Assembly: GCA_903934015.1 (NCBI GenBank)
Contig: CAIZMI010000034.1
Location: forward strand, 20,378-84,377
Direction of reading: 5' to 3'
Source: an uncultured bacterium
Lineage (GTDB): Bacteria; Patescibacteriota; Andersenbacteria; UBA10190; CAIZMI01
DNA length: 64,000 nt
The notes beneath the pieces are model-generated. The model saw only the letters and a program-made list of their open reading frames with translations, had not been told where the DNA came from and did no database searches. Below are positions 1 through 63,974 of the stretch, piece by piece. A program made the translations under genes and the position numbers. Position 1 is the first letter of the stretch. Each line of letters starts with the position of its first letter.

Positions 1-1830
1 ATCGGCCTCGCTCAGCGTATCGCCAGTGGCAAGGTTCCGGTTAATCTGATCGATAAACGTATTCTTTCATTAGATTTAGCAGCTGTATTGGCAGGCACAA
101 CTTTTCGCGGTGAATTTGAAGAACGTCTAAAAGAAATTCTGCGCGAAGTAAAAGAAACACCAAATATTCTTCTTTTTATCGATGAACTACATACTATTGT
201 TGGCGCAGGTTCCGCCGGTGGTTCTTTAGATGCCGCCAACATTCTCAAACCGGCCTTGTCGCAAGGAGATATTCAAGTAGTGGGTGCCACGACACTGGAC
301 GAATATCGAAAACATATTGAAAAAGACGCTGCCCTGGAAAGACGCTTTCAGCCGATTGTAGTACGCGAATCAACCGAAGAAGAATCAATCAGTATTTTAA
401 AAGGTGTTCGCGAAGCCTACGAAACGCATCACGGATTAGAAGTCACCGATGACGCCATTGAGGCCGCCGTTGCTTTATCCACTCGCTACATCACAGACCG
501 ATTCTTGCCGGATAAAGCTTTGGATTTACTTGACGAAGCCGCTTCCCTTGCCCGCCTAAAACTTGGAACTGAATCCAAAACCGATACCAGTGAATTACAG
601 GAAACCAAAGAAGAGCTAACGGAAACACAATCACAAAAGAATCGCGCGATTGAAGAAGAGCGCTATGAAGAAGCATTGGTTTTGAAAAAAGAAGAAAAAC
701 GGCTTGAAGAAAAAATCCATTCCCTACACACAATGCCCAAGGAAAAAAATCACGTTCACTCCATCACGCGCGATGATATCGCCTCCGTTATTGCCGAAAT
801 GACAGGCATTCCAACAACACGTCTTCTAAAAGCCGAAGAAAAAAAATTATTGCATCTCGAACGCACCATGGGCAGTCGCATCGTCGGTCAAAAAGACGCC
901 ATCAATACTGTCGCTCGTTTTATTCGTCGCTCTCGCTCCGGTATCGCCAATCCAAATCGCCCCGTCGGTTCTTTTATTTTCCTCGGTCCAACCGGTGTTG
1001 GAAAAACTGAACTGGCGAAAGTTTTAGCGCGCGAAATATATGAAGACGAAGACGCCTTGATTCGTGTTGATATGTCCGAATTTATGGAAGCACATGCTGT
1101 TTCTCGTTTGATTGGCGCCCCGGCCGGCTATGTTGGCTACGAAGAAGGTGGCAAACTCACAGAAAAGATTCGTCGTCGCCCCTACTCTATTGTCCTATTT
1201 GATGAAATTGAAAAAGCCCACCATGACGTTTTCAACATTCTTCTTCAAATTATGGAAGAAGGAGAGCTTACCGACACGCACGGGAAAAAAGCGAATTTCC
1301 GTAACACTATTGTTATACTAACCTCCAACATTGGTTCACAAGAACTGGCAAAAGAAGCAAAGATGGGCTTTGGCGTTACGGATGAAAAAGAAAAGAAAGA
1401 ATCGCAAGAACGTTACGATGAAGTAAAACAACGTGTTATGGGAAACTTGCGCGAAGAAATGGCCCCCGAACTTCTTTCCCGCATTGATCAAATAGTAGTT
1501 TTCCGCCCACTCGGTCTACCGGAATTACGTCGCATCACTGCTCTCAATTTGGAAGAACTCAAAGAACGTCTCCGCAAGCAACGTCTTGAGGCAACAATTT
1601 CCAATGACATCCGTGACCAAATTGCCGAACGTGCCTTTCAAAGCGGTGAAGGCGCTCGACCAATTCGTCAATTTGTCCAAGAATTTATCGAGGACCCGGT
1701 AGCCCAAAGCATTATTGAAGGGTCTATCCCCAGTGGCAATAAATTTAATATCATTTGGGAAGAAGGCAAAACCAAAATTGTCCCAATTGAATTAAAAAAA
1801 GAACAAAAGCAAAAAGTCGCCGCCTTGTAG
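1..1830 (+). CDS. clpC: ATP-dependent Clp protease ATP-binding subunit ClpC/ClpB family (5'-truncated by window)
   Basis: Open frame from base 1; [32 protein letters not shown]-like coiled coil, second Walker [18 protein letters not shown]. Confidence 0.93.
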
Positions 1831-3580: not shown

Positions 3581-3711
3581 GGAGAGGTGCCAGAGTGGCC
3601 GAATGGGCGTCCCTGGAAAGGACGTAAGTCCGAAAGGGCTTCGCGAGTTCGCCCACGCACCACGCAGGGTGCGGGGCGCCCAGAACCCAACGTGGTTCTG
3701 TGGCGAATCTC
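3581..3711 (+). pseudogene. tRNA-Ser(GGA) duplicate interrupted in the T-loop by a double-hairpin insert; 3' acceptor strand lost
   Basis: 3581-3651 identical to 3752-3822; insert 3652-3705; sequence resumes AATCTC then diverges. Confidence 0.85.
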
Positions 3712-3751
3712 CTACCTATTCTTTAAAACTTTAGAAAAAATAATCAGCTTT

Positions 3752-6084: not shown

Positions 6085-6157
6085 GCGCTCGTAGCTCAAT
6101 TGGCAGAGCAGGGGCCTCTTAAGCCCAAGGTTGAAGGTTCGATTCCTTCCGAGCGCA
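6085..6157 (+). tRNA. tRNA-Lys(CTT), no encoded CCA
   Basis: GCGCTCG/CGAGCGC acceptor, CTCTTAA loop, GGTTCGATTCC. Confidence 0.95.
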
Positions 6158-6426
6158 CTCTCGTTGATTAGTTTTGCGAAGCAAAACAATCCAAACGTAC
6201 ATAAAATAGCTCCACGTCCTGTGGAGCTATTTTACACAAGAATCAATGAACTCCGAAAGTTTGCGACAAGAGACGCAAAATTTCGGAGCTACCTTTGATT
6301 GCAACACAACTGCTTGTGTTGCGTGAAGGAATCGAACGGCGAGCGATGTTATGCAGAACCGCTCGCCGATGGCCAGATACTTGCGTATCAACGCGAGTTT
6401 CGAGGCCGATTCCTTCCGAGCGCACT
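6158..6426 (+). ncRNA. structured tRNA trailer element ending in a direct repeat of the tRNA 3' end
   Basis: Antisense T-arm 6325-6337; direct repeat CGATTCCTTCCGAGCGCACT 6407-6426; motifs shared with the Arg and Glu loci. Confidence 0.7.
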
Positions 6427-6789: not shown

Positions 6790-6833
6790 AAACAACGCAT
6801 TAAGGTCCGACCCTTGCAAAGGTCGGACCTTAA
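6790..6833. repeat. REP-like palindrome TAAGGTCCGACC-TTGC-AAGGTCGGACCTTA
   Basis: Near-identical inverted copy, including flank, at 50798-50843. Confidence 0.75.
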
Positions 6834-7022
6834 TCACGAAGAACACAACACGACGGCAATATTTGCTGATACAAACAAAATTCCTCCACCCGTGAACGGT
6901 TACTCCCGTATCTTCTGTTACAAACCGAAACCGACGGGGCGACAAAACAAACCCTCGCTATCCCTGTGACTAAGCGTCAAAAAACGATAAATTTTTTTAT
7001 TATGTCTGCCCCCCAACCTCTC

Positions 7023-7436
7023 CTATTTAATAATGTCTCTTTTTATTAAATCCGGTAATATTTTATTTCTGATAATCGGCGATACCCTATCTGTTACCAA
7101 ACCTTCCCTTCCCAACCAACTGAATTTCACTATCTCGTGCGAAGGAATTGGAACACCTACTATTTTACCAACATACAGCCGTATCGAAACGTCCTTGGTT
7201 GCATCTCCGGCGGCCACATCAACATATTCACCAACAAACTCCAAACTTTCTTTATCCAGCCGAACAGCAAGCTCTTCTCTGATCTCGCGAGCCAGACAAA
7301 CAATATCAGATTCACCATCTTCAATCCGCCCTCCAGGCAAAATATAGTCCGTGGTAAAATTATCCTTTTCACAAACCATGAACATTTTCTGATCTTCCGA
7401 CAATAGAAGTAACCCCACCTTGTTAAAATAAGCCAT
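7023..7436 (-). CDS. Nudix hydrolase
   Basis: PGGRIEDGESDIVCLAREIREEL. Confidence 0.9.
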   Translation of the reverse strand: MAYFNKVGLLLLSEDQKMFMVCEKDNFTTDYILPGGRIEDGESDIVCLAREIREELAVRLDKESLEFVGEYVDVAAGDATKDVSIRLYVGKIVGVPIPSHEIVKFSWLGREGLVTDRVSPIIRNKILPDLIKRDIIK

Positions 7437-9883: not shown

Positions 9884-11053
9884 CTATCGATTTCCTTTTG
9901 CCCGATTGTGCGTCTTACACAACATCTCACAATTTTTAGCTGTTGTTTTACCACCCTTGCTCCACGCCGATACGTGATCGGCTTCCATTTCACCAAAACT
10001 CCAAATTTTACACTTGTTAGCATCATGGCCAATTACACAATTTGAGCAATTTGATTGACCTTTTTTCTCTGCTTTAGCGGTCTGTGTTGAGTAAATACTT
10101 CTCTTTGTTGCTTCATCAAAGATTCGAACGTCAAGCAATTTTGTGTCAGTGGAGCCGCCGAGAATATACTCAAAAATGCCTTTGCGATTTTTGACGTACG
10201 GATCACCATAGAGCTTTCGTACCTCGCCTGTCACCTTAACGGGATCATAAGCTTTCTTATGGTATTGCTCATATAGTCGCCCCCACTCCAGTCCTCGCAT
10301 CTCACTTTCAACATCTATAAACACACTTGAAACCCAATCAACTACACTACCGAAATACCTTTTCAGCTCGGCAACATTTTTATCAAAACGATGTCGGCTC
10401 ATATAATCGCCAACGTTGCCTTTGCTTACCCAATCAAGCGCACGCTCCAAAAAATCCTGCCTGTTAACACTACCCGCTACATACGCGCCCCATTTTTGGA
10501 TGTTGGCATTTTGGCTATTGCTAAACTCTTCTTTACCAAGCGTCACAAATGGCCCAGAATACACGGCGTTAAGCAACTCCTGATTATTAAGTGGAACTCC
10601 GGCGATGTTGATTGTTTTAAACCATTCTTTTATCTCGCTTTCTTTCCCTTCGCATTCGTAAATAAGCAATGTTGTTATTAAAATTTTATCCTGCTTGTCT
10701 TTTGCCATACCACTAAAATTTTGTGGATTGCCGTTTTCATCTTTGATGGCAAATTTATCAGTCACAAAACGTCCAATACTTGTTATACGTTGTTGCCCAT
10801 CCAAAACTTCCAGCCCATCGTCATCGACTTTATTAAAATAAATTAGGCCAATCGGATAGCCCTTAAGGATTGACTCAATAACAGCTACTTCTTTTTTACC
10901 GCCGTCGGAAGAATATATGTAGTTGCGCTGATATTCTGGCTGAATCGTTAATTTGCCAGACAAGCCAAACAACCCCTTGCCCTCCAATTCGTTATAAACG
11001 AATCCTTCGCAAATAGCTTTGATGGTAATTTCGATTTTCAAAGTAGTTTTCAT
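9884..11053 (-). CDS. DUF262 + C-terminal HNH nuclease (GmrSD-related)
   Basis: IQPEYQR, LDGQQR, F..IN; EADH...[10 protein letters not shown]. Confidence 0.85.
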
Positions 11054-11054
11054 A

Positions 11055-12230
11055 TTATTTTTTTTTATGTCTAATGAGTACTCTTTGATAAACTTTTTCA
11101 TGTAAACCAGCTCGAATAACTACTCCACTTGCATTCAAATCATAAACTCCCCTTTTTTTGAATTTATCTAAATATGCTTGCTTACATTCCGTTGATTTGT
11201 ACACTTTTGTTTTTAGTTTATATAAATCTTCGTTTTCACACATCCCAACAATACCAAACTGTTCTGGGGAGTGTTTATCAAGAAAACTAATCGGTACACC
11301 CATTAATCCGTTGTAATCACTTGGAATATTTTTTACTAAAGATACTTCTAAGGCATTATAATTATCGTATTTTTCAAATGGTTTTTTCGTTACAAACTTA
11401 ATAATCTCGGCTTCAGTCATGAGTGGCAACGGCTGATGACGACGTCCATGATCAAGATTGGTGAACCAACGAACACCTTGCACTCGGGTGATATAAACTT
11501 TCTTACCTCTCTCATTTGTTTTAATTTCACGAACTTGATCCAAATTAGCAATCTTTTCGGGTATCTCAAAAAACATCGCGCCAGCATTGACTTTGTAATT
11601 GTTGCCCAACCACACTTTATTCTCTTTAATTAGTGGAAATATTTCTTTGTAGGTAATTGCATTCAAGTTGCCAATGATCAAAAACTTTTTATCATAATCA
11701 ACAAGTTGTTTTATATACTCGCGAAACAGGCTAAACGGAGGATTTGTTACCACAATATCAGACTGCTTCAGAAATTCTATAGATTCATTGCTACGGAAAT
11801 CGCCGTTTCCTTTAAGCAGAGTTGTTACATTTTGATCCTGCCTCAACAAACACTCTATATCCTCAAGGTTTACTGCACCATCATTATTTAAATCTTTTAC
11901 CTCATTGATTTCAATTTTGAACGGCTGTTTTCTAGTGAACCTTCTTAATCCTTCTATCCCAGACAACGGAAATATAGTGCCGGTAATAGGTGATGGAACA
12001 TAACTTGTAGTAATAAGTTTTTTAAGTCCAATATTATTGAATTTTAATACAAAGTATTTGAAAAAATTACTTTCATACGGATCGTCACAGTTGCAATACA
12101 CTACTTTGCCTCGAAACACATCAGGATTGTATTCCAAATACGCTTCAATCTCTTTCTGGATATCTACGAATTGCGTATAGAACTCGTCGTTCTTTACTCT
12201 TTTTGCGTTAGTAAGATTTTTGTTTGCCAT
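11055..12230 (-). CDS. adenine-specific DNA methyltransferase, EcoRI family
   Basis: [42 protein letters not shown]. Confidence 0.9.
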
Positions 12231-12580: not shown

Positions 12581-13588
12581 TTATTTGTTCATCTTTCTCA
12601 AGTGCTTTGGATTATGAGAACCAATAAGTTCTATGTATTGTTTTACAGCTGCCCTACTCTCGATAAAAATATCTCGATCCCGCATATTTGCCCAAACACC
12701 GATTTTGCGGAGAGATTCGTGAACTGAATTAAGCAAAGGCGGAGAAGCGGATGTAAAACTAATCTTTTTGTAGCGATAATCTTTGCCTCTTATACGATAT
12801 TGATGCCAATAAACCGAACCATCCGTATCAAAAAGACCTCGAATACAAGGAATTAAATAATTCCGCTTTCTCTTGATCCACATTGGAATATCTATTTTTT
12901 GTCTAATTTTGTTTCCCTTAACCAGACCCAAGTGTTCTATACAAAAGTGAACCATCTCCGTCCGGCTTACGCGATAATCGTTTGCTAAAGCATCTTTACT
13001 AATTATCACGCTCGGTCTAACTCCAAACAATTTCTGAATTAAACTGCATACAAAGATACCGTATTCATGATCATCATACCTGTGTAACGTAACAGTTAGT
13101 TGATAACGGGTTATTCCACCATCACCAAGCATCAATCCGACAAACTCGGCTAATTCCGGTGATTTCATAGGCTTTCTAAACGGCAAACTTTTCCAAAGTA
13201 TTTTGTGTTCTTGATATTTCCCTTTCTCATTCCACCATTTTGTCCACTGCACTCGGCGATAATCCTCATCCATACCAATCCGTCCATATTTTTTAAACAT
13301 TGCTTTACCACCCAAACTGCCAATTTTTTCAAGGCGTTTATTCCATTTTAATAAACTGGCAGAGGTAGGTATTTGTACTCCGCTTTTTTGAGCTAGCGTT
13401 TTAGCGTGGATAAATGACATGTGATACTTCTCTCTCTTCCAATCACAAAGCGTACGCCTATTAATGGCCAACAAACCGGCTAAGAATGGTGTTGATACAT
13501 TTAATTTTGAAGCAACGTTTTCAATAAATTTGCGTTGCTCTTCAGGTTCAAAAATGATCCTGTCTAACTTATCCACTTCATCTATCAT
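12581..13588 (-). CDS. free-standing double-motif LAGLIDADG protein with N-terminal HTH-like region
   Basis: AEFVGLMLGDGG and IRGLFDTDGS motifs; start moved to MIDEV because the upstream part overlaps the tRNA trailer. Confidence 0.8.
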   Translation of the reverse strand: MIDEVDKLDRIIFEPEEQRKFIENVASKLNVSTPFLAGLLAINRRTLCDWKREKYHMSFIHAKTLAQKSGVQIPTSASLLKWNKRLEKIGSLGGKAMFKKYGRIGMDEDYRRVQWTKWWNEKGKYQEHKILWKSLPFRKPMKSPELAEFVGLMLGDGGITRYQLTVTLHRYDDHEYGIFVCSLIQKLFGVRPSVIISKDALANDYRVSRTEMVHFCIEHLGLVKGNKIRQKIDIPMWIKRKRNYLIPCIRGLFDTDGSVYWHQYRIRGKDYRYKKISFTSASPPLLNSVHESLRKIGVWANMRDRDIFIESRAAVKQYIELIGSHNPKHLRKMNK

Positions 13589-13646
13589 GTGGTAATTATA
13601 CAACAAATACGAACATTTTACGAACGTCATTGTTTTTGCACAATCC

Positions 13647-13889
13647 GATTCTTGTGCAAAACAGCATTCGCGTTTAGCGAATGCTGTTTTGTGTACATTT
13701 TTTTGTTTCACTAAGCGAAACAAATCTCGAGTGTCCCCGGCAGGACTTGGCCTCGCCTCAAAAATACTGATGTATTTTTGGGCTGGCCACCGCCTCGTGT
13801 TATCTTCGAATAACACTCCGGCGTTCAAGTCCTGCCGGGGGATTTAGAAAAAAGACAATCGCACCGCGATTGCCATTTTTCTAAATCTG
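13647..13889 (-). ncRNA. structured tRNA-Arg trailer element with antisense and sense T-arm copies
   Basis: Antisense copy 13823-13840, direct repeat 13731-13749, module 13647-13731 near-identical to 63660-63742. Confidence 0.72.
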
Positions 13890-13963
13890 TGTCCCCGGCA
13901 GGACTTGAACCTGCAACCTTCAGCTCCGCAAGCTGACGCTCTGTCCAGTTGAGCTACAGAGAC
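13890..13963 (-). tRNA. tRNA-Arg(GCG), no encoded CCA
   Basis: TCAGC-TTGCGGA-GCTGA anticodon arm; GGTTCAAGTCC. Confidence 0.92.
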
Positions 13964-14021
13964 ATAATTAGTCTCTTTTTTGTAATGATATCATTTTAAT
14001 TCTTTTTTGAAATCTACCAAG

Positions 14022-14206
14022 CCGGCAGGACTTGGCCTCGCCTCTCGGAGTGTTGATACACTCCTCGGGCTGGCCACCGCCTCGTATTGCTTGCGAGCAA
14101 TACTCCGGCGCTGAAAAACCATTAAGGGTTTTTCAGCCTGCAACCTTCAGCTCCGCAAGCTGACGCTCTGTCCAGTTGAGCTACAGAGACATAATTAGTC
14201 TCTTTT
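14022..14206 (-). pseudogene. tRNA-Arg(GCG) duplicate (with 16-bp leader) interrupted in the T-loop by ~102-bp hairpin insert
   Basis: 14137-14206 identical to 13910-13979; resumes CAAGTCCTGCCGG at 14034-14022 then diverges. Confidence 0.85.
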
Positions 14207-31313: not shown

Positions 31314-31878
31314 CAAACACCCCGCGGCAAGCCGCGGGGTATGACAGGAGGCATGGCCGTCATGTGAGGAGACGTAACTGCGCTGGGTTACCGCTCGTCT
31401 TTCCCTGGTTTTGGACGTATTGCTCAACCACCTTCCAATTACCCCGCTCGCCCACTGTGGCGAGATAAAAACCGTCACTCCAAAACTCTCCACCCCACAG
31501 ATCCTTCTTGAGCGCGGGAAATCGACGGAACAACTGTATTGCCGTGACGCTTTTGAAAATTCGGACCGCTTGTGAACCACTCATCTTTGGTGGAAAAGAG
31601 CAGAGCAGATGGATGTGATCACCGTCTGTACCTATTTTTTCAAACGTAATTTCGAAGCGTTCCGTGATTTCCCGCGCGATCTGCACAATGGCGAGCGGGA
31701 TTTCGTCAGTCAGTAAAGCTTTTCTGTATTTAACAGGAAAGACGAGGTGATAGTGAGAGGTATAGACATGATGATAACCATGAAGGACGGCCATGCGTTA
31801 ATTCTATACTGGAAACCAATGGTTTCCAGACCTTCCTTTACAAGGACCCCGCGGCAAGCCGCGGGGTAAGATAAAAAT
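31314..31878 (-). mobile_element. IS200/IS605-family element (tnpA only), ~565 bp
   Basis: Identical subterminal hairpins ACCCCGCGGCAAGCCGCGGGGT at 31319-31340 and 31846-31867. Confidence 0.9.
31360..31794 (-). CDS. tnpA: Y1 HUH transposase TnpA
   Basis: YHLVFPVKYR, DHIHLL, LWGGEFWSDGFY, YVQNQ. Confidence 0.95.
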   Translation of the reverse strand: MAVLHGYHHVYTSHYHLVFPVKYRKALLTDEIPLAIVQIAREITERFEITFEKIGTDGDHIHLLCSFPPKMSGSQAVRIFKSVTAIQLFRRFPALKKDLWGGEFWSDGFYLATVGERGNWKVVEQYVQNQGKTSGNPAQLRLLT

Positions 31879-50797: not shown

Positions 50798-50843
50798 TTA
50801 AGGTCCGACCTTTGCAAAGGTCGGACCTTAATGCGATTGTTTT
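50798..50843. repeat. REP-like palindrome, second copy of 6790-6833
   Basis: TAAGGTCCGACCTTTGCAAAGGTCGGACCTTA. Confidence 0.75.
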
Positions 50844-61083: not shown

Positions 61084-61196
61084 ACCCTGAGCCGAGTCGA
61101 AGGGTGTCGAAGGGTATTACGTATGCGGTATGTTGTATTTAGTATGCTGTATAAACGCGACGCCGATACCACATACAGCATACCGAATACCGCATC
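61084..61196. repeat. CTTCGAC-family palindrome plus inverted 7-mer arrays (GTATNNN / NNNATAC)
   Basis: Direct inspection. Confidence 0.6.
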
Positions 61197-63659: not shown

Positions 63660-63974
63660 CTCGAGATTTGTTTCGCTTAGCGAAACTATATAATGTACAC
63701 AAAACAACCAAACATCCCGTTTGGTTGTTTTGCACAAGAATCGAAGAACTCCGAGACTCTAGGCGCTCGATAGCGCCGAGTCTCGGAGCAGCATTGATTA
63801 ATGCCCTTTACGGGTGTTTTTAAATATCTTCTGTCGAATATGGGGAATCGAACGGTATTTTGAAAACATGAACTGCTTCATGTTTTCAAAAACCGAGGCT
63901 TCGCAGGAGGAGTTGCGCATCGAGCCGAAGCGAGGCGCAGCGACGGAAGCGAAGGATTCCCCGTGGGGCTACCA
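63660..63974 (+). ncRNA. structured tRNA-Glu trailer element ending in a repeat of the tRNA 3' end with CCA
   Basis: Antisense T-arm 63842-63853; GATTCCCCGTGGGGCTACCA at 63955-63974; motifs shared with the Lys and Arg loci. Confidence 0.72.

Follow-up and report, generated by a model that had tools for sequence, protein, structure and literature searches.

Repeats that trail tRNA genes are known from E. coli, in which the RtT repeats follow tyrT (Rfam RF00391). Among GIY-YIG enzymes, SegB of phage T4 recognises a conserved motif of the tRNA T-arm (PMC2330249), and the substrate of SsnA is cut only when single-stranded, a few nucleotides upstream of the hairpin (Chenal et al. 2025, PMC11893778). 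Biochemical proof of a link between REP-like hairpins and a small single-strand nuclease dates only from 2025, with this Ssn system (PMC11893778). TnpA(REP), an enzyme of the HUH type, requires a GTAG tetranucleotide and a mismatch in the hairpin of its repeats (PMC3333891). Neither module A, the repeat described here, nor GIY-YIG leaders at tRNA ends were found described in the literature consulted (main texts, with few subscription papers). We read module A as non-autonomous selfish DNA that descends from the leader of a gene for a UPF0213-type GIY-YIG nuclease and that this enzyme likely spreads in trans, with a probability of roughly 0.58.

The window is the whole stretch of 64,000 nucleotides that was analysed; it comes from a genome (G000) of 1.34 Mb, with 64 contigs and 42% G+C. 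A sequence-only reading had placed in it a conserved ~85-nt module at three unrelated tRNAs, and all three copies were recovered, behind tRNA-Lys(CTT), tRNA-Glu(TTC), and a duplicated tRNA-Arg(GCG) end. The features of these loci are the following.

6085..6158, plus strand: tRNA-Lys(CTT), C74 included (ARAGORN, Rfam)
6159..6293, plus strand: complete Lys copy of module A (covariance model, 129 bits), with hairpin 1 at 6171-6187, hairpin 2 at 6202-6234, the head-pairing linker at 6241-6250, and hairpin 3 at 6251-6288
6301..6425, plus strand: module B behind the Lys copy, with a hairpin, an inverted T-arm copy (6327-6337), a core, and a duplicated tRNA-Lys end (6408-6425)
12581..13588, minus strand: ORF with a LAGLIDADG_3 domain (PF14528, E 3e-7), directly downstream of the truncated Arg copy, with a -10-like site
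13634..13645, minus strand: fold-back, a short inverted copy of the hairpin-2 arm and linker, at the broken end of the Arg copy (sequence; DNA fold)
13646..13730, minus strand: truncated Arg copy of module A (nhmmer E 1.9e-13; covariance model, 70 bits), with the head, hairpin 1 at 13721-13705, hairpin 2 at 13691-13657, and the linker, hairpin 3 being absent
13731..13748, minus strand: duplicated 3' end of tRNA-Arg, 18 nt (3' part of the T-loop, acceptor strand, A73-C74), onto which module A is fused
13749..13888, minus strand: module B between tRNA-Arg and its duplicated end, with a terminator-like hairpin, an inverted tRNA T-arm copy (13840-13823), and a two-hairpin core (z -10.1)
13889..13963, minus strand: tRNA-Arg(GCG) (ARAGORN, Rfam)
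14020..14190, minus strand: partial tRNA-Arg copy upstream of the intact gene, with a module-B core in its T-loop
63588..63660, plus strand: tRNA-Glu(TTC), C74 included (ARAGORN, Rfam)
63661..63789, plus strand: complete Glu copy of module A (covariance model, 146 bits), with hairpin 1 at 63670-63686, hairpin 2 at 63700-63732, the linker at 63739-63748, and hairpin 3 at 63749-63788
63843..63972, plus strand: module B following the Glu copy, with a duplicated tRNA-Glu end as its last part

The full module A is ~130 nt long. Its head starts immediately behind C74 and leads into hairpin 1; a conserved linker separates this hairpin from hairpin 2, and a further linker, which pairs with the head, precedes hairpin 3. 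The ~85-nt module first proposed is real and folded, but the unit extends to a third hairpin that the truncated Arg copy has lost; the continuation noticed at Lys and Glu contains this hairpin, whereas the TTGATT that follows it is not conserved in an alignment of 30 complete copies. In this alignment, drawn from G000, a congeneric genome (G001) and metagenome contigs, 95.3% of cells pair and both sides have changed in 23 of 44 pairs, a result reached by none of 500 shuffles. Several different sequence solutions of the head-linker helix are found among true copies. The window copies fold with z values of -5.7 to -7.6, and none of 200 shuffles folds as well. The Arg arrangement is not a mis-assembly, since assembled contigs from three of four public runs span the region 13300-13939, and hence the Arg copy, with 0 differences. 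The fold-back at its broken end is likely a template-switch scar, and the LAGLIDADG_3 ORF may have caused the truncation. ORFs resembling the latter by eye follow tRNA-Met, -Leu, and -Cys elsewhere in G000. Downstream of tRNA-Ser(GCT), the window also harbors an EcoRI-type adenine methyltransferase gene and a GmrSD-N/HNH nuclease gene (9884-12230, minus strand), likely a restriction-modification pair.

The Lys and Glu copies begin at C74, and the Arg copy begins at C74 of the duplicated tRNA end. The start had been placed at the base after the discriminator; the junction does lie at the tRNA end, but C74 is encoded in 44 of 45 tRNA calls, with or without a module behind, so that it can be read equally as N73|C or C74|T.

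A covariance model (R1) was built from 30 module A copies, with the leader at the tmRNA locus (see below) excluded. On G000 it yields 35 matches, three of which were set aside as reverse-strand echoes of palindromes. The 32 sense copies kept comprise 15 that start 4 nt or less from C74 of an ARAGORN tRNA, one after the tmRNA (confirmed by Rfam), six after complete or partial duplicated tRNA ends, and ten that are stacked or nested; none is dispersed. Nesting involves four copies inserted at one fixed site, and all 32 share the orientation of the tRNA or tmRNA. Stranded positions within 500 nt behind a tRNA end represent 0.84% of G000 (45 tRNA calls kept, two doubtful ones dropped). These counts bear out the proposed fusion to tRNA ends, real or duplicated; dispersal independent of tRNAs, as expected of an ordinary REP family, was not found genome-wide, every sense match being linked to a tRNA or tmRNA. 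R1 scored 82 of 734 first-look candidates in G000, and an exhaustive nhmmer run over the whole genome, in agreement with R1, gave no dispersed copy at E <0.001. Module A has reached 20 of the 45 called tRNA genes.

In metagenome contigs, an ARAGORN tRNA lies just upstream of module A at 14 of 17 loci, the other three being preceded by a short tRNA-like or tmRNA-like end or by ncRNA-like sequence. Rfam returned only tRNA and tmRNA at threshold, and no other family, RtT included, reached its gathering score for module A. A 24-nt module A pattern has 0 matches in a collection of genome contigs from which close relatives may be missing. A conserved ~100-nt non-coding sequence without Rfam match, 6S-like by eye only, is found at L107 (~630-733, plus strand), L122 (~1400-1500, plus strand), and L137 (~1576-1680, minus strand), where it is followed by module A or a leader, as tRNA ends are; one loose pattern did not find it in G000.

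R1 has 34 matches in G001 (same genus) and two in G031 (another family); the remaining 38 of 41 order-level genomes have none, and BLAST with the Glu copy finds matches in G000 and G001 alone among the 41. Where they align in long HSPs (22 kb in total), the two congeneric genomes are ~80% identical. At their 39 shared tRNA loci, tallied manually with 7-8 nt remnants scored as absent, module A is found in both genomes at 10, in G000 only at 8, in G001 only at 6, and in neither at 15; its presence differs at 14 of the 24 occupied loci. Furthermore, the order of modules A and B is reversed at four of the 10 shared loci (Arg-TCT, Glu-TTC, Leu-CAG, and Trp). Seven sites that lack a C74 copy in one genome retain CCA there (Asp, Glu-CTC, Val-TAC, Leu-CAG, Lys-TTT, Arg-CCG, and, as a remnant only, Gly-CCC), and in the other genome module A sits behind C74 or behind a displaced end. 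The encoded CCA retained at several unoccupied sites fits insertion between C74 and C75. A joined (empty) form of module A sites is absent from the assembled contigs of public runs, where rare variants drop out. The earlier suggestion of separately mobile or stackable units, possibly a mobile end, gains support from the differing occupancy and order and from the 10 of 32 copies that are stacked or nested. In the simplest reading of the layers, module A would have come first at Arg and been pushed out with the old end on the arrival of module B, and it would have arrived after module B at Lys and Glu.

Module B adjoins module A at all three window loci, and is present at many other tRNAs of G000 and G001. 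It is made of a hairpin, an inverted copy of the host tRNA T-arm, a two-hairpin core, and a directly repeated tRNA end, and its arms match whichever tRNA precedes. The duplicated ends are explained by these host tRNA end copies. Partial tRNA copies (Arg, Ser, Pro) with hairpin DNA in the T-loop, upstream of intact genes, are also observed at 3581-3720 (plus strand) and in G000:C48 near 6860-7170. At the tmRNA locus of G001 (L219, ~1060-1180, plus strand), the nuclease gene is followed by the remnant of a module B and by a duplicated end of the tmRNA, which carry a further A-like variant.

The tmRNA locus of G000 consists of the tmRNA, a leader resembling module A, and an ORF of 89 residues encoding a GIY-YIG nuclease (G000:C18:1531-1797, minus strand). 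R1 matches this leader with 54.7 bits (E 2e-11), the next best match in 98 kb having an E of 0.006, and an HMM made from the leaders of other genomes (16 sequences) also matches it (E 4e-10). The nuclease is a single-domain protein matching only PF01541 (E 5e-14), with no match near cut-off in an NCBIfam search; its nearest solved relatives are the UPF0213 structures 1zg2 (E 5e-12) and 1ywl (E 2e-11). Residues Y7, Y17, G19, R27, H31, and E65 are present, and a single-sequence AlphaFold model has a pLDDT of 50.

In relatives of the nuclease gene, which show the ancestral layout, C74 is followed by a REP-like hairpin in inverted orientation; a conserved linker and a spacer separate it from a second REP-like hairpin, behind which the gene lies. 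The leader hairpins form an inverted REP-like pair, and the same hairpins flank related nuclease genes elsewhere. The gene-proximal hairpin carries a tandem G.A mismatch, and the first three bases of the leader covary with two downstream positions. With five duplicate loci dropped, a hairpin is found at most 260 nt upstream of the gene in 20 of 31 homologues of at least 54% identity (0.4 expected from shuffles), in 6 of 12 at 40-53% identity, and in 2 of 20 below 40%. A T-arm is also found upstream in 16 of the 31 close homologues, and 11 of these 31, including the second copy of G000 and the only close copy of G031, have no hairpin. Six relatives at 40-47% identity have the hairpin adjacent to the gene, in four cases on both sides. 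The close homologues group in one clade with support of 98/90 (30 rows; bootstrap not fully converged). The leader model has matches in 14 of the 42 genomes searched at class level and in 14 of the 151 at phylum level. Among the matches inspected, the nuclease gene lies downstream of 7 of 27 at class level and 5 of 15 at phylum level, and 13 of 27 and 11 of 15, respectively, are linked to a tRNA or tmRNA by manual tally. In viral contigs, the leader pattern is found at two loci, neither at a tRNA.

Several related elements lie apart from these loci. A lone canonical hairpin of the leader family is located in the window away from tRNAs (61085-61104, plus strand; E 0.01). Long-intron tRNA-Phe and tRNA-Thr genes are found at G000:C51:3091-3399(-) and C43:10257-10760(-), the Thr intron holding a leader-family hairpin. 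In genome G020, all four leader copies (L114, L126, L132, L135) are off tRNAs and each is preceded by CAC, a pattern suggestive of a short target sequence. A more distant GIY-YIG gene (G000:C55:51317-51511(-)) is located between a partial upstream tRNA-Gly copy and tRNA-Gly(CCC). Finally, a near-perfect 35-nt palindrome, unlike the leader hairpin, is present in several copies (6796-6834, 50798-50835), one of them behind the second UPF0213-like nuclease gene of G000 (G000:C48:8604-8867), which is without leader.

The covariance model of the wide leader family reaches only E 1.4 on the Glu copy and 4.2 on the Lys copy, with no Arg match, and the corresponding HMM has no match on module A up to E 1. 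Since the wide-family models miss module A, the link is transitive, via the G000 leader and an intermediate in G031, in which an A-type head is joined to a canonical hairpin, the whole being stacked behind tRNA-Lys. The orthologous leader of G001 has no A-like middle hairpin, and that of G000 may thus have acquired its own recently from module A. Hairpin 3 of module A has Watson-Crick pairs in place of the tandem G.A mismatch of the family; with this loss, module A may no longer be recognised by the nuclease. The inverted doublet layout is clear in the leader family and degenerate in module A.

Module A is read as selfish DNA rather than as a tRNA-processing signal because its presence differs between related species and because it matches a nuclease leader. 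The sequences show its position at C74 and its orientation, its gain, loss, re-ordering, stacking, and nesting, its mosaicism, and its leader similarity. By analogy with SsnA, the nuclease would nick single-stranded DNA beside its own hairpin. From there, the liberated 3' end would enter another tRNA gene end by strand invasion or template switching, and the module would be copied in after C74, the old CA and trailer being displaced or deleted. To our knowledge, GIY-YIG enzymes are hydrolases and not strand-transfer enzymes, so that the insertion step must come from host repair, which would complete it. Over many rounds of nicking and template switching, stems would stay perfectly paired, loops would become inverted, and hairpins would be exchanged among copies. 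The tRNA cloverleaf is predicted to be undisturbed by the module A trailer, and G000 encodes a protein of the PolyA_pol family (CCA-adding type); loss of CCA is therefore likely tolerated, and tRNA ends may serve both as target and, for these two reasons, as safe harbour.

A leader-derived module could also move passively from one tRNA locus to another, by ordinary ectopic gene conversion in which the conserved T-arm (left) and adjacent modules (right) provide the homology, with no dedicated enzyme. Such spread would produce mosaic hairpins, and the missing head of module B beside module A at Lys is what an overwrite would leave; the loss of the family mismatch in hairpin 3, and the blank R1 results in 38 of 41 order-level genomes though several have the nuclease, point the same way. 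A crossover in the T-loop would, however, import a foreign acceptor, which is not seen, the C74 junctions following differing acceptor strands, and the four G000 copies nested at one fixed site do not fit either. We consider passive spread rather unlikely.

The pairing of the module raises the possibility of a host-selected RNA trailer, a co-transcribed structure for processing, protection, or termination, in which the head-linker helix stacks under the acceptor stem. Every copy has the tRNA orientation, the pairing of the head with its distant linker is kept through several sequence solutions, and the predicted tRNA fold is not perturbed. In addition, no RNase Z match in G000 reaches the cut-off, which leaves 3' processing unaccounted for, and three loci follow ncRNA-like sequence in place of a tRNA. 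A selected RNA is expected to favour G.U pairs. Among 930 stem cells, however, 892 are Watson-Crick, 15 G.T, and 18 A.C, with no enrichment of G.U, and both strands of module A fold within about 4 kcal/mol of each other. Two of 29 hairpin-2 loops are inverted, their sequences being reverse complements of common ones, and the same hairpin-3 allele can occur with different hairpin-2 alleles (seven four-gamete sets, under loose clustering). Template switching is reported to homogenise the arms of inverted repeats (PMC5941160) and to invert spacers (PMC8604942). The Watson-Crick swaps, the lack of G.U bias, the inverted loops, and the reassortment together fit DNA template switching better than RNA selection. 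The covariation pointed out by the sequence-only reading, stems swapped with pairing kept, is hence real, but with G.T about as frequent as A.C and with inverted loops it is by itself no proof of selection on RNA.

A scan for a G+C hairpin followed by a U tract detects a terminator-like site on the tRNA-sense strand in none of the three window copies, and the Arg copy sits behind a separate terminator-like hairpin and the duplicated end, which speaks against a composite terminator. As a processing signal, the module is unlikely to be required, the 15 shared tRNA loci devoid of it in both genomes, and 14 more in one, being at odds with a trailer under host selection. Six G000 copies, Arg included, moreover sit behind a duplicated end and not behind the tRNA. 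An RNA trailer is in our view distinctly unlikely; the conserved head-linker helix is the sole feature that leaves an RNA role open.

Mobilisation as a REP or PATE element by an HUH (Y1) transposase would assign a role to the CTAC of hairpin 3, a GTAG foot on the other strand, and to the C|T left junction. CTAC ends 14 of 30 aligned copies and is missing from the other 16; the GTAG strand is opposite to that of the C|T junction, and no mismatch is conserved at the base of hairpin 3. G000 has five Y1_Tnp matches, but all five genes have their own hairpins, with no module A within 350 nt on each side, and we regard this route as very unlikely. In the window, an IS200-like Y1 transposase gene (31314-31871; PF01797, E 4e-34) is located between two G+C hairpin copies. 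The least probable origin, which we give almost no weight, is a scar that integrase-driven islands or prophages left at tRNA attachment sites: duplicated tRNA ends adjoin some copies and one copy lies behind an 8-nt end displaced by a 731-nt insert, but module A contains no tRNA copy (the duplicated ends belonging to module B or other inserts), the only tyrosine recombinase of G000 is not near the copies, phage and plasmid collections hold no module A match, and a 21-nt module A pattern has 0 matches in viral contigs. As to a retro-mechanism, none of the four G000 reverse transcriptases (C54, C55, C19, C29; DGR-type by eye) is at a module.

With module A taken as selfish DNA derived from a nuclease leader, its novelty lies in being a derived genus-level subfamily that stacks, nests, and swaps parts, without the ancestral hairpin mismatch. 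A bolder proposal, which we hold only tentatively, is that the minimal UPF0213 nuclease drives a mobile element free of integrase and transposase and targeting C74 of any tRNA or tmRNA, module A being its actively spreading miniature. If true, it would provide a function for the long-unassigned UPF0213 family and a new route of site-directed DNA insertion, with a miniature that occupies almost half of the tRNA genes of a streamlined genome and evolves by hairpin swaps. G000 offers a test set, having an apparently intact nuclease, its own leader, and ~30 derived copies with exact junctions, to which the sister species G001 adds empty and filled orthologous sites. A nuclease cutting single-stranded DNA at a structure-defined site by tRNA ends could be a useful tool. 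The results also carry a caution: clean compensatory changes in bacterial hairpins need not imply a selected RNA.

Compared with described systems, the locus shares features with several. With RtT repeats and tRNA-integrated islands it has in common repeats behind tRNA genes and, in the neighbouring module B, a duplicated tRNA end, but module A itself is devoid of tRNA-derived sequence. SegB spreads with tRNA-gene DNA and is a precedent for generic targeting of tRNA genes, but it cuts double-stranded DNA and homes between allelic regions (PMC2330249), in contrast with the minimal single-domain gene and the gene-less modules at non-allelic tRNA genes observed here. The REP/BIME/REPIN elements and their RAYT (TnpA-REP) partners display an inverted hairpin doublet round a variable spacer, lineage-specific expansion, mosaic arrays, and a partner enzyme inferred to act on single-stranded DNA (PMC3333891, PMC3733652), all of which have counterparts here. 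The partner is, however, a GIY-YIG nuclease and not an HUH transposase, no GTAG or CGTC tag is obligatory (the GTAG foot, as CTAC, being found in 14 of 30 copies only), the copies are located at one gene class instead of being dispersed, and flanking by the same repeat, as in RAYTs, is seen at none of the five Y1_Tnp loci.

The Ssn system (SsnA with NTS/SRM) likewise combines a single-domain GIY-YIG gene of ~90 residues with an oriented hairpin that also occurs without the gene (PMC11893778). The essential SsnA residues Y6, Y17, and E64 (PMC11893778) correspond by position to Y7, Y17, and E65, and the hairpins on both sides of four relatives' genes recall the NTS-ssnA-NTS arrangement (PMC11893778). 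In contrast, the protein described here matches UPF0213 structures, its hairpin has by eye no resemblance to the NTS consensus printed in the main text of PMC11893778, and the copies, which stack and nest, are limited to tRNA and tmRNA ends, the word tRNA being absent from that main text. Because its hairpin is not NTS-like, and because it departs from REP/RAYT in the GTAG tag and in the flanking of the transposase gene, module A is assigned to neither system; it works like an Ssn/SRM or a REP/RAYT pair.
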